DNA of 64,000 nucleotides from a bacterium (GTDB lineage Bacteria; Planctomycetota; Planctomycetia; Planctomycetales; Planctomycetaceae), in the NCBI GenBank assembly GCA_016125225.1, contig WGME01000019.1, forward strand, positions 60,162-124,161, read 5' to 3'. Position numbers and translations under genes: made by a program. The notes beneath the pieces were generated by a model, which made no database searches, was not told where the DNA came from, and saw nothing but the letters and a program-made list of their open reading frames with translations. Below, one piece after another: positions 11,380 through 44,294 of this stretch (position 1 is its first letter; every line of letters starts with the position of its first letter).

Positions 11380-11420
11380 GAGATCCGCTGACCCGTCGAT
11401 TTCGGACAGCGAATGAAAAC

Positions 11421-11454
11421 CAGAGGCCCGGCATCTTGCGATGCCGGGCCTCTG
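11421..11454. terminator. Bidirectional terminator hairpin between convergent lexA and the response regulator gene
   Basis: Perfect 15-bp stem CAGAGGCCCGGCATC-TTGC-GATGCCGGGCCTCTG. It is flanked by TCATTT on the plus strand and GTTTTCATT on the minus strand. Confidence 0.7.
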
Positions 11455-38115: not shown

Positions 38116-41367
<3,252 letters not shown>

Positions 41368-41405
41368 TCAGAATGCGAAAGAAAATTCAGCAGGCAAAGC
41401 ACATG

Positions 41406-42053
41406 TCAGGGCTCATCGCGCTGAGGCAAGAGGTCGTCAACAGCCAGTGATAACGATTCTCCTTCCGGCAACTTCAATTCCGCAGTCATGCCCCGCCGAT
41501 AGACGTGGCATTGCGCATAACCTGCGTTCGGACAATTCGGTTCGGTATGAACCATCAGGGAATCGTCGACGAGATTTATGATCCAGTAGACCGGAATGCC
41601 GGATGCACCATACAAATCGGCCTTATCGTTCTGGTCGAGCGAGAGAGAGGACTGAGCGACCTCGATTATCAGGCCCACATCAGTCGCCTTAGGTAGTCCC
41701 TCAGCATAGTCTGTGGGTTGCCCATTCAAGATACAAATATCAGGTTCCGGAGCGCTGTCGTCGTTACAGATCACTGGGCCTTGCTGCTGGACATGGTAAC
41801 GTTCGGTGGAAATCAGCTGCTCCAGCAGTTGGGCCAGAAGTTTGATGGTGAGGAGATGTCGTGGTCCCTGAGTCATGGCTTTGGTCGGTTCATCTCGGCG
41901 ATCTTTATAGAGCAGAATCCCATCGATCAACTCGATCGGCATCCCCTCGCGGAGAATACCAGCTGACATCATTTTCAGGTACTGCTCGACCGTAATCGGC
42001 ACGACCACAGGAGTGCCATGCTGCACGAGATGCGACATCAACTGCAGTGACAT
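41406..42053 (-). CDS. Uma2-family (DUF820) putative endonuclease
   Basis: ITVEQYLKMMSAGIL...IELIDGIL, PEPDICIL, LIIEVAQSSLSLDQNDKADLYGASGIPVYWIINL. Confidence 0.75.
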   Translation of the reverse strand: MSLQLMSHLVQHGTPVVVPITVEQYLKMMSAGILREGMPIELIDGILLYKDRRDEPTKAMTQGPRHLLTIKLLAQLLEQLISTERYHVQQQGPVICNDDSAPEPDICILNGQPTDYAEGLPKATDVGLIIEVAQSSLSLDQNDKADLYGASGIPVYWIINLVDDSLMVHTEPNCPNAGYAQCHVYRRGMTAELKLPEGESLSLAVDDLLPQRDEP

Positions 42054-42054
42054 G

Positions 42055-43632
42055 TTATTGCTCCGAGGTTTCCGCGTCTTTGAACAGTTTGTAATCGACG
42101 CTGTCGACGAGGGCTAACCAGCTGGCTTCGATGACGTTTTCGCTGACGCCGACCGTGCTCCAGACGTCTTTGTCGTCGCGGCTTTCGATCACGACACGCA
42201 CGCGAGCGGCTGTACCTTCCGTCGAGTTGATCACCCGCACCTTGTAATCGACAAGTTGCATGTCGATCAGGGTCGGATATGCGGTGGCGAGGGCTTTTCG
42301 TAACGCTTCATCGAGGGCATTCACGGGACCGTCCCCTTCCCCGACGACGTGTTCTATCTGTCCGTTGACTCGGAGTTTGACCGTGGCCTCGGTGATGGTG
42401 GGACGGTCCTCTTCCGATTCGACATTCACGCGGTAATGCAGCCGTTCGAACTTCGGGACATACAGTCCGGCTTCCTTGCGGACCAGCAGATCAAACGACG
42501 CTTCCGCCGCCTCAAACTGGTAGCCTTCATTTTCCAGATCCTGCACACGGTTCAGAATCTGCGACATCAGGGCGTTGTCGTTACTGATGCGGTACTTGTC
42601 GGTTTTGGCGACGATGTTCGAGCGGCCGGAGAGTTCACTCACCAGCACGCGGCGGGTATTGCCGACGGTTTCCGGCACGATGTGTTCATAGCTCGATGCC
42701 AGTCGATTGACCGCGTGGACATGCATGCCTCCCTTGTGCGCGAAGGCCGACTGCCCAACGAAGGGCTGTCCCGAGCGGAAGTTCATGTTCGCGATCTCGT
42801 AGACATACCGCGACAGCTCGGTGAGATGCGTGAGCCCACTGTTATGGAGAACTTCGTAGCCGGTCTTCTTCAGGGCCAGGTTAGCGATCACGCTGATCAG
42901 GTCGACATTGCCGCAGCGTTCGCCGATCCCGTTGATGGTCCCCTGTACTTGCATGGCGCCATGATCGACGGCGGTGAGTGAGTTCGCGACCGCGAGTTCA
43001 CAGTCGTTATGACAATGAATGCCAACCGGGATGTGCAGTTCTTTGCGGGCCGCCTCTACGGCCTCAGCGATTTCTTCGGGCAACCGGCCACCGTTGGTAT
43101 CACACAAAATGATCGCGGCGGCACCGGCTTCCTCGGCGGCTTTCCAGGTCCGCAGAGCAAACTCGGGGTTCGCGCGGTAACCATCGAACGAGTGTTCGGC
43201 GTCATAGAAGACCTTCCGGCCTTCGGCGACGAGAAAGCCCACCGAATCGCGGATCATGGCGAGATTTTCGGCTTCATCGACCCGCAGGACTTCGGTCACC
43301 TGCATGTCCCAGGTTTTGCCGACGACGGTGCAGACGGGAGTGCGAGCATCGCGCAGGGCCTGCATGCCGACATCGTCTTCCGCCGCACACCCTTTGCGCC
43401 GGGTCATGCCGAAAGCGGAGACCTGGGCGTGTTGCAAAGGGAGATCGCGGACCCGTTGGAAGTACTCCGCGTCTTTGGGATTGGAGAGCGGATAGCCCCC
43501 TTCGATGTAATCAATGCCCACGGAATCGAGCTTTTGCGTAATGAGCAGTTTGTCCTGCAGCGAGAAGTTCACACCTTCGCCCTGGCTGCCGTCGCGCAAG
43601 GTCGTGTCGTAGATTTCGATCCGGCGGCTCAT
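42055..43632 (-). CDS. cimA: (R)-citramalate synthase (TIGR00977-type LeuA/CimA family)
   Basis: IYDTTLRDGSQGEG, HCHNDCELAVANS, GTINGIGERCGN, FAHKGGMHVHA, LSGRSN, GDGPVNALDEALRKAL, and VDYKVRVINSTEGTAARVRVVIESRD...WSTVGVSENVIEASW (C-terminal regulatory domain). Confidence 0.85.
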   Translation of the reverse strand: MSRRIEIYDTTLRDGSQGEGVNFSLQDKLLITQKLDSVGIDYIEGGYPLSNPKDAEYFQRVRDLPLQHAQVSAFGMTRRKGCAAEDDVGMQALRDARTPVCTVVGKTWDMQVTEVLRVDEAENLAMIRDSVGFLVAEGRKVFYDAEHSFDGYRANPEFALRTWKAAEEAGAAAIILCDTNGGRLPEEIAEAVEAARKELHIPVGIHCHNDCELAVANSLTAVDHGAMQVQGTINGIGERCGNVDLISVIANLALKKTGYEVLHNSGLTHLTELSRYVYEIANMNFRSGQPFVGQSAFAHKGGMHVHAVNRLASSYEHIVPETVGNTRRVLVSELSGRSNIVAKTDKYRISNDNALMSQILNRVQDLENEGYQFEAAEASFDLLVRKEAGLYVPKFERLHYRVNVESEEDRPTITEATVKLRVNGQIEHVVGEGDGPVNALDEALRKALATAYPTLIDMQLVDYKVRVINSTEGTAARVRVVIESRDDKDVWSTVGVSENVIEASWLALVDSVDYKLFKDAETSEQ

Positions 43633-43650
43633 GGTAAATTCAATCCGGAG

Positions 43651-43680
43651 GACGCCCAGGGAAAGCTTTCCTTGGGCTTC
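43651..43680. repeat. 30-bp palindromic repeat, copy B, in the cimA 5' leader
   Basis: GACGCCCAGGGAAAGCTTTCCTTGGGCTTC. It lies between the attenuator terminator and the cimA ATG. Confidence 0.8.
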
Positions 43681-43684
43681 TAGG

Positions 43685-43717
43685 AAACAAAAAACCCTCA
43701 GGGGCGACCTGAGGGTT
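43685..43717 (-). terminator. Canonical intrinsic terminator inside the cimA leader (candidate attenuator)
   Basis: Minus strand: AACCCUCAGG-UCGCC-CCUGAGGGUU followed by UUUUUUGUUU. It ends 52 nt upstream of the cimA start. Confidence 0.75.
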
Positions 43718-43748
43718 GGAACGTTTGTGCGTCGATCCCAAAGGCCAC

Positions 43749-43865
43749 CTATGCATCGTCTCCAATAATAATCGCCGTAATAATAGCAGATTCCACGAAC
43801 CGGTGTACCCGGCCGATGGCTGCAAATACGGTCAAAGTGGAAACGGAGTTCACAGGCAGTCTCAT
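43749..43865 (-). CDS. Candidate Ile-rich leader peptide (38 codons)
   Basis: MRLPVNSVSTLTVFAAIGRVHRFVESAIITAIIIGDDA*. Five ATT codons fall within eight positions, and the stop is 31 nt before the terminator stem. Confidence 0.5.
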   Translation of the reverse strand: MRLPVNSVSTLTVFAAIGRVHRFVESAIITAIIIGDDA

Positions 43866-43880
43866 TCGGAAAGTTTTTAA

Positions 43881-43909
43881 AGTCTACGAGGCAACCGGGG
43901 GGCTGTCAA
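43881..43909 (-). promoter_or_regulatory. Sigma-70-like promoter for the cimA leader
   Basis: Minus strand TTGACA-N17-TAGACT, directly after the stop of the upstream ORF. Confidence 0.45.
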
Positions 43910-43916
43910 ATTGGGA

Positions 43917-44294
43917 TCAGGCGGCGGTCTCATCCGACCAGAACCGCGAGAAGCCGTGTTCGGTCAAACGACACTGAATGAGCCGGTAACGTTCGCGGTC
44001 TGTCAGGCCATTCAGTACCCCATAAACAACGCACCCCATCACAATGCTGCTCACCTGCACCACACTCATGGGCAGTTGGAACGGTTTCAGGTCGGCGAAG
44101 ACCTCGCTCTGGCTGCAGTATTCGCCGAATTTCTGGCCCTCATATTGCAGTTCGACACCGCAGAAATCGGGGCTCCACTCGTAATCGAACGGGCCGTACG
44201 TTCTTCGCCGGTGCGTGACCCAGAAGCGGGTCCCTTCCAGACGAATGGCGTGGTTGGAGTTCACGGCATGGCTCGAAATACAAGTGAAAGTCAC
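43917..44294 (-). CDS. Hypothetical protein
   Basis: 125-aa ORF of plausible composition. No recognised motif. Confidence 0.45.
   Translation of the reverse strand: MTFTCISSHAVNSNHAIRLEGTRFWVTHRRRTYGPFDYEWSPDFCGVELQYEGQKFGEYCSQSEVFADLKPFQLPMSVVQVSSIVMGCVVYGVLNGLTDRERYRLIQCRLTEHGFSRFWSDETAA

Follow-up and report, generated by a model that had tools for sequence, protein, structure and literature searches.

The DNA upstream of cimA raises the question of whether a short open reading frame (ORF) with a run of Ile codons and the hairpin that follows it, both on the minus strand, act together as a ribosome-mediated attenuator. By the window we mean the whole 64-kb stretch of planctomycete DNA that was analysed. 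An earlier note on this DNA had read the unit as a leader that senses Ile-tRNA charging and gates cimA, whose product it took for a citramalate synthase of the TIGR00977 type. Citramalate synthase carries out the first committed step of threonine-independent isoleucine synthesis. On re-reading the sequence we found the promoter, the leader ORF, the terminator and cimA exactly where they had been placed (Table 1). The TIGR00977 assignment is borne out by a score well above the model cutoff, every LeuA model scoring the window CimA below its own.

Table 1. Features of the cimA leader region and of the genes behind it in the window
Feature	Position	Strand	Details
Predicted sigma-70-type promoter	43881..43909	minus	TTGACA 43909-43904, 17-nt spacer, TAGACT 43886-43881
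Leader ORF	43749..43865	minus	38 codons, MRLPVNSVSTLTVFAAIGRVHRFVESAIITAIIIGDDA, then TAG
Candidate regulatory codon run	43764..43784	minus	ATT ATT ACG GCG ATT ATT ATT
Predicted antiterminator, 5′ strand	43737..43749	minus	GGUGGCCUUUGGG, 13 nt; first base is the G of the leader stop UAG
Predicted antiterminator, 3′ strand	43703..43715	minus	CCCUCAGGUCGCC; most of the terminator 5′ arm plus the terminator loop
Intrinsic terminator	43685..43717	minus	AACCCUCAGG-UCGCC-CCUGAGGGUU 43717-43693, then UUUUGUUU 43692-43685
cimA, citramalate synthase	42055..43632	minus	525 aa; TIGR00977, 675.1 bits (cutoff 450)
Uma2-family (PF05685) gene	41406..42053	minus	Between cimA and valS; begins 1 nt past the cimA stop
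valS, valine-tRNA ligase	38116..41367	minus	1083 aa; NF004349, 1020 bits (cutoff 704)

The leader region in the window

The putative promoter, TTGACA-N17-TAGACT, matches the consensus at 10 of 12 positions and ranks first among three promoter-like sites in 6 kb. Its –10 hexamer is separated from the leader ATG by 15 nt; with transcription predicted to start at about 43874, the leader would have a 5′ UTR of about 8 nt, and no Shine-Dalgarno sequence was seen for the window leader. The run of ATT Ile codons reported earlier just before the leader stop is present: the leader has five Ile codons (residues 28, 29, 32, 33 and 34), all of them ATT and all within 7 positions. The terminator begins 31 nt past the leader stop, and 52 nt separate its end from the cimA ATG (43632). 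It consists of a stem-loop with 10 bp and a 5-nt loop (–16.5 kcal/mol), and the U-tract after the stem reads TTTTGTTT.

Within this window alone, neither promoter-like sites (3 found, 2.6 expected) nor terminator-like sites (8 found, 5.5 expected from shuffles) are more frequent than chance allows. The argument is therefore built on structure and on a comparison with relatives, and the significance of the Ile run and of the terminator is to be judged by their conservation among relatives, not by counts in a single window. Across the 64 kb, no unit of short ORF, terminator and downstream gene was found besides the cimA leader. The strongest intrinsic terminator of the window (11420-11454, minus strand, –34.7 kcal/mol) lies 37 nt past a long ORF; it is of the ordinary gene-end type, and hairpin-plus-U terminators are in use in this genome.

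Conservation and coding signal of the leader

A search of 185,579 species genomes with CimA as the query yielded 80 loci of 67–89% identity, all from planctomycete genomes or metagenome-assembled genomes (MAGs); these loci are phylogenetically related, and the counts and P-values given below accordingly overstate their independence. A short ORF with an Ile/Val-rich C-terminal part precedes cimA in most of them, and of 77 orthologous cimA leaders from Planctomycetaceae, Gemmataceae and Pirellulales about 60 keep an Ile-rich ORF together with a terminator, which gives the earlier proposal the conservation it called for. At least 4 Ile per 8 residues in a short ORF upstream of cimA were found in 32 of 76 related loci; the same criterion selected 4 of 508 other regions of the same loci, 8 of 1520 shuffles and 6 of 76 reverse complements.

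A filter for leader plus terminator was passed by 58 loci, from which we removed one (L029), where the terminator is the upstream gene's own, to leave 57. All 57 have a strong intrinsic terminator, and 55 have a promoter of the form TTGAC-N17-19-TAnnnT before the leader, as compared with 2 of 370 control windows. Leader peptides bounded by this promoter are 18–43 residues long (median 29). In 4 more loci the leader unit is placed further upstream of cimA. Carriers of the unit include the cultured strain Thalassoglobus neptunius KOR42 (L041) and, among the Gemmataceae, a Gemmata sp. MAG (L071) and a Limnoglobus sp. MAG (L063).

Departures from this arrangement were seen in several lineages. Three Gemmataceae loci (L044, L048 and L055) keep the leader ORF, the hairpin and the complementary segment at the stop codon, and their U-tract is degenerate; they may have weak terminators or another mode of action. 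The leader unit is missing in four Isosphaeraceae loci and a few others. In these Isosphaeraceae (L062, L067, L074 and L077) the cimA-valS order is kept, with neither an Ile/Val leader nor a terminator before cimA, and the attenuator has been either lost or never gained there.

Both Shine-Dalgarno-like and leaderless types of leader start occur among the relatives. The ATG lies 6–7 nt past the –10 hexamer in 13 loci (L028, L030, L031, L035–L040, L058, L060 and L069 among them), a distance that implies a leaderless transcript. The very short 5′ UTR, which the earlier note had listed as a caveat, thus turns out to be a conserved property of the family.

Could the hairpin and U-tract simply be the terminator of the upstream gene (43917-44294), with cimA served by a promoter further downstream and the Ile-rich ORF a product of chance? 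The window terminator does stand downstream of a co-directional ORF (stop 43919-43917), and in two relatives, L029 and L033, the sole terminator before cimA directly follows the upstream gene, without a leader. However, homologues of the 125-aa and DUF454 proteins encoded upstream in the window occur in none of the 80 loci, and yet leader and terminator are conserved; since the upstream genes are unrelated among loci, the terminator is not theirs. The conserved promoter intervenes between the upstream gene and the leader in 55 of the 57 loci. The terminator keeps a fixed spacing to the leader stop (21–50 nt, median 31) and a variable one to cimA (16 to about 330 nt), and no second promoter-like site was found in the window from the terminator to cimA. 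This objection, foreseen in the earlier note, fails when checked. We reject the terminator as the 3′ end of the upstream gene because the genes upstream show no conservation and a conserved promoter stands in between, and we give the reading as a whole practically no chance.

The coding content of the leaders is distinctive. Over the family, Ile makes up 21.9% of the last 16 leader residues as compared with 5.0% of CimA, a 4.4-fold enrichment, and Leu is depleted (0.34-fold). Leader Ile codons are ATT in 71% of cases and those of the cimA genes of the same loci in 20%, so that the codon preference is reversed. Conservation extends to the start codon, the reading frame, the Ile/Val-rich composition and a stop codon inside the antiterminator strand; clades share no conserved RNA sequence upstream of the switch, and the sequence and length of the peptide are free to vary outside the Ile/Val run. 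Leader peptides gave no Pfam match. The conserved start codon and frame, the reversed Ile codon preference and the types of leader start in relatives are indirect signs that the leader ORF may be translated.

The switch at the leader stop codon

The earlier note had found no convincing antiterminator by eye and had suggested folding the region in search of mutually exclusive structures. Such a helix does exist: it joins 43749-43737 to 43715-43703, excludes the terminator and covaries with it. Nascent RNA from 43752 to 43703 folds as the antiterminator (–20.4 kcal/mol, 56% of the ensemble, z of –3.3 relative to shuffles). With the 3′ arm present as well, the minimum free energy (MFE) structure is the terminator, at –21.5 kcal/mol, and when the RNA is masked down to 43739, which mimics a ribosome on the stop codon, only the terminator forms. 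In these models the terminator and the antiterminator are mutually exclusive and of near-equal energy. In the MFE structure of the full-length leader, the leader 5′ end pairs with the antiterminator strand, which hints at a protector helix like that of trp.

The competing helix is retained across the family by way of different sequences. The terminator arm is CCCUCAGG in Planctomycetaceae, CCCCGGAGC in Gemmataceae and GCCCUGGGGCC in Pirellulales, and the sequence at the leader stop codon shifts together with it between clades. Examples are UAG-GUGGCCUUUGGG with CCCUCAGGUCGCC and ccUGAgg with CCUCAGG; further compensating pairs are GAUCUGAGG with CCUCGGAUC, UUCGGGGU with ACCCCGGA and CCGUAAGGGC with GCCCUGCGG. 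Duplexes between the stop-codon segment and the terminator arm plus loop have a mean energy of –16.6 kcal/mol (mean z of –2.7 relative to shuffles) as compared with –7.5 kcal/mol for upstream control segments. Permuting segments and arms across loci gave –13.8 ± 0.38 kcal/mol, and the native value was reached in none of 2000 permutations.

Two alignments were used to follow the pairing. One was a MAFFT alignment of the 15 closest leaders, with pairing in 91% of the cells of the antiterminator and 96% of those of the terminator, as compared with 61% and 67% at best in the corresponding slid controls. A covariance model of the antiterminator recovered 41 leaders among 79 loci searched, all on the plus strand and upstream of cimA, and in the window it marked one site, the cimA leader; one extra weak match fell on the opposite strand of L006 (E-value 0.79). 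In the second alignment, of all 42 covariance-model matches, which is fitted to the structure under test and thereby favours it, pairing holds in 85.6% of cells, and variation on both sides is seen in 6 of 11 pairs. The covariation score of this fitted alignment is 0.192, as compared with 0.115 ± 0.010 for shuffles (0 of 500 reach it) and at most 0.064 with the partners slid. In one locus the model placed the leader at L061:2444-2554, about 450–550 nt upstream of cimA, with a 76-aa ORF in between that is apparently an insertion within the attenuated unit.

The position of the helix relative to the reading frame is equally constrained. Over the 57 loci, the antiterminator 5′ strand spans, in the median, –3 to +9 from the first base of the stop codon. 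A ribosome covers about 12 nt past its A site, and the strand therefore falls within the cover of a terminating ribosome. From the last Ile codon to the first paired base downstream of it the median distance is 17 nt, and in 81% of loci this distance is 12 nt or more. In constrained folds of 55 loci, the terminator arm pairs upstream in 95% when the ribosome is stalled, and the terminator forms in 100% when the ribosome is at the stop codon.

In 91% of loci the terminator is favoured over the antiterminator at equilibrium. The switch must therefore work kinetically, with the antiterminator forming first. Classical attenuators likewise depend on the antiterminator forming first. Nascent folds without any ribosome give the antiterminator in 75% of loci, the window included, and no conserved 1:2 protector helix of the trp type was found in the nascent-RNA folds across the family. 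An untranslated leader may, according to these folds, lead to read-through rather than to trp-like super-attenuation.

The short ORF might instead encode a functional small hydrophobic peptide, or act on cimA translation or mRNA stability, for example by re-initiation, and not on termination. The leader peptides are indeed hydrophobic and only 18–43 residues long, and an excess of short leader genes near structural genes has been reported for planctomycetes (PMC4833913). The leader ORFs of that report are, however, a different matter: they lie 10–11 nt from their structural genes, the spacing of re-initiation, while the ORF stop of the present unit is 70–330 nt from the cimA start, which is too far. 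The peptide also varies outside the Ile/Val run and has no Pfam match, and none of these models has a use for the strong hairpin, its U-tract and the competitor helix that covaries with it. We hold this explanation to be very improbable.

We consider it highly likely, from the sequence comparisons and folding models together, that the unit is a ribosome-mediated leader-peptide transcription attenuator upstream of cimA. Transcription would start from the promoter at 43909-43881, and a ribosome would load on the 38-codon leader near the RNA 5′ end. With ample charged Ile-tRNA, it would reach the UAG at 43751-43749, where its footprint would hide the antiterminator strand GGUGGCCUUUGGG; the hairpin at 43717-43693 would then form, RNA polymerase would halt at the U-tract, and the outcome would be a transcript cut short at about 190 nt, with little mRNA for cimA. 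With charged Ile-tRNA scarce, the ribosome would stall on the five ATT codons at 43784-43764, that is, at a distance of 15 to 35 nt before the antiterminator strand, which would stay free. The free strand would pair with 43715-43703 as soon as the latter had been transcribed, the terminator would be blocked, and polymerase would read through into cimA and probably on, via the Uma2 gene, into valS. Both the stalling of the ribosome and a regulatory response to Ile/Val charging are steps that we infer from the sequence.

valS, Val codons and the place of the unit among known attenuators

The gene content behind cimA bears on what the leader may sense. In 49 loci valS lies downstream of cimA in the same direction, with a spacer of at most 200 nt in 31 of these and an overlap of the two genes in several; direct adjacency is seen, for example, in L004, L005, L007, L046, L051, L071 and L073. 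The mean number of Val codons per leader is 3.4 with valS adjacent, 2.5 with valS behind an insertion and 0.9 in loci that have no valS within at least 2.7 kb. The dependence of leader Val codons on valS presence is significant when related loci are treated as independent (Mann-Whitney test, P-value 2e-6), and leader Ile counts show no difference by valS presence. In relatives with valS behind cimA, the Val codons of the leader would thus make it respond to the charging of both Ile-tRNA and Val-tRNA, and the attenuated operon probably includes valS as its distal gene, to judge from gene order and codon content. What had been proposed earlier, an attenuator that senses Ile-tRNA and gates cimA, is supported by the sequence tests as to the attenuator; Ile alone gives way to Ile plus Val in the family. 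The regulated unit, proposed for cimA, probably also takes in valS, downstream in the 49 loci.

In the window, a Uma2-family gene for a putative restriction endonuclease lies between the two and is probably co-transcribed with cimA, judging by its position; a homologue occupies the equivalent position downstream of cimA in 12 related loci. A weak hairpin with a T-rich stretch (–12.7 kcal/mol, 41385-41424, minus strand) lies across the 3′ end of the Uma2 gene, immediately ahead of valS, and could lower read-through into valS in this genome. In another locus, the cimA-valS spacer contains on the opposite strand a match to the Rfam Acido-Lenti-1 RNA (L064:4602-4647, minus strand, 55 bits with a gathering score of 37).

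A real switch could also answer to a non-ribosomal trigger, such as a small-molecule riboswitch, a T-box-type tRNA element or an RNA-binding protein, with the ORF incidental. Terminator/antiterminator pairs are common to all such mechanisms, and the whole leader region is more stable than shuffles (z of –4.4 and –3.5). A scan of 43400-44100 with Rfam 15 at E-values up to 10, however, gave only two chance-level matches (MIR398 and chrB-a, both with E-values above 1), and nothing was found on the leaders of 18 diverse related loci at the gathering score. T-box elements and the known leaders are among the Rfam families that gave no match. Moreover, the conserved parts are the start codon, the frame, the Ile/Val richness, the reversed codon preference and the stop codon inside the antiterminator strand, and the tracking of valS by leader Val content would be left unexplained by a ligand-binding RNA. 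We regard such a trigger as unlikely, with only a small chance of being the right one. Membership in the T-box, the Leu, Thr, His and Trp leader or the ilvB-OMG families was rejected for want of a match to the Rfam covariance models.

Leader-peptide attenuation had been thought undescribed in Planctomycetota, and this agrees with the full-text literature that we searched: it holds no report of an attenuator in planctomycetes or upstream of cimA, Lopatovskaya et al. 2010 (Mol Biol 44:128), reportedly a survey of attenuators across bacteria, aside. Among the nearest comparable cases are the upstream-ORF motifs ilvB-II of Corynebacterium, ilvB-OMG and that of Leptospira ilvB, which the sections of PMC10272879 devoted to them read as attenuators on the strength of comparative genomics. 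As those sections describe them, they resemble the present unit in having upstream ORFs rich in branched-chain and Thr codons before branched-chain biosynthesis genes of non-model phyla; they differ in preceding ilvB, where the present unit precedes cimA(-valS) and matches no Rfam model. Representatives of ilvB-OMG are assigned in the same sections to “various bacterial phyla”, with the phyla unnamed, and the string ‘Planctomycet’ is absent from PMC10272879.

On balance, we favour the view that the cimA leaders are an undescribed, class-wide attenuator family, in which leader composition co-evolves with the cargo (Val codons where valS is present) and some lineages have a leaderless leader ORF. 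It would be the first ribosome-mediated transcription attenuator of Planctomycetota, and no citramalate synthase gene would have had one before; its conservation in Gemmataceae would be genetic evidence for coupled transcription and translation. Attenuation needs a ribosome close behind RNA polymerase, and conservation in Gemmataceae therefore bears on coupling there. Gottshall et al. 2014, as cited in PMC6212462, claimed that transcription and translation are physically separate in the Gemmata lineage, and the debate over nucleus-like compartmentation in Gemmata, in the passages of PMC6212462 that concern it, leaves the question of coupling open.

If the family is what we take it to be, planctomycetes, whose gene regulation is poorly known, gain a concrete and testable regulatory RNA element. 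The reach of leader-peptide attenuation would widen to a new phylum and, as a new target, to valyl-tRNA synthetase and the citramalate route to isoleucine, with leader codon content tracking operon content across lineages. Its conservation in Gemmataceae would offer a simple genetic test of transcription-translation coupling, and the cultured carrier T. neptunius KOR42 makes experiments feasible.

The proposed mode of action is that of the ilv, leu and trp attenuators of Proteobacteria. Classical leader-peptide attenuators of branched-chain synthesis are those of E. coli ilvGMEDA (ilvL) and ilvBN (ivbL). The cimA unit has, as they do, its own promoter, clustered branched-chain codons, a terminator and an antiterminator that competes with it, and its codon content predicts that Ile and Val are sensed together. 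Unlike them, it belongs to another phylum, would regulate citramalate synthase and valS, is depleted of Leu instead of using it, shows no conserved 1:2 protector helix in the nascent-RNA folds, and has no sequence or covariance-model similarity to known leader families.

The E. coli trp operon is the paradigm of an attenuator. As in trp, a ribosome at the leader stop would block the antiterminator strand and a stall a few codons upstream would free it, and the terminator follows within about 60–70 nt. The cimA leader differs from trp in that its stop codon lies inside, or directly 5′ of, the antiterminator strand, in that it shows three interacting segments only, and in that, when untranslated, it is predicted to favour the antiterminator kinetically and not to super-attenuate.

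Leaderless short-ORF attenuators are known from mycobacteria, where the ORFs are polycysteine ones; the leaderless leader transcripts implied in 13 cimA loci are similar to these, whereas the window leader has a short UTR, predicted at about 8 nt. In E. coli pheST the leader peptide is rich in the synthetase's own amino acid. valS of the cimA unit resembles pheST in that an aminoacyl-tRNA synthetase gene stands behind a leader rich in its own amino acid, and differs in that valS would be the distal gene of a biosynthetic operon and not the sole target.
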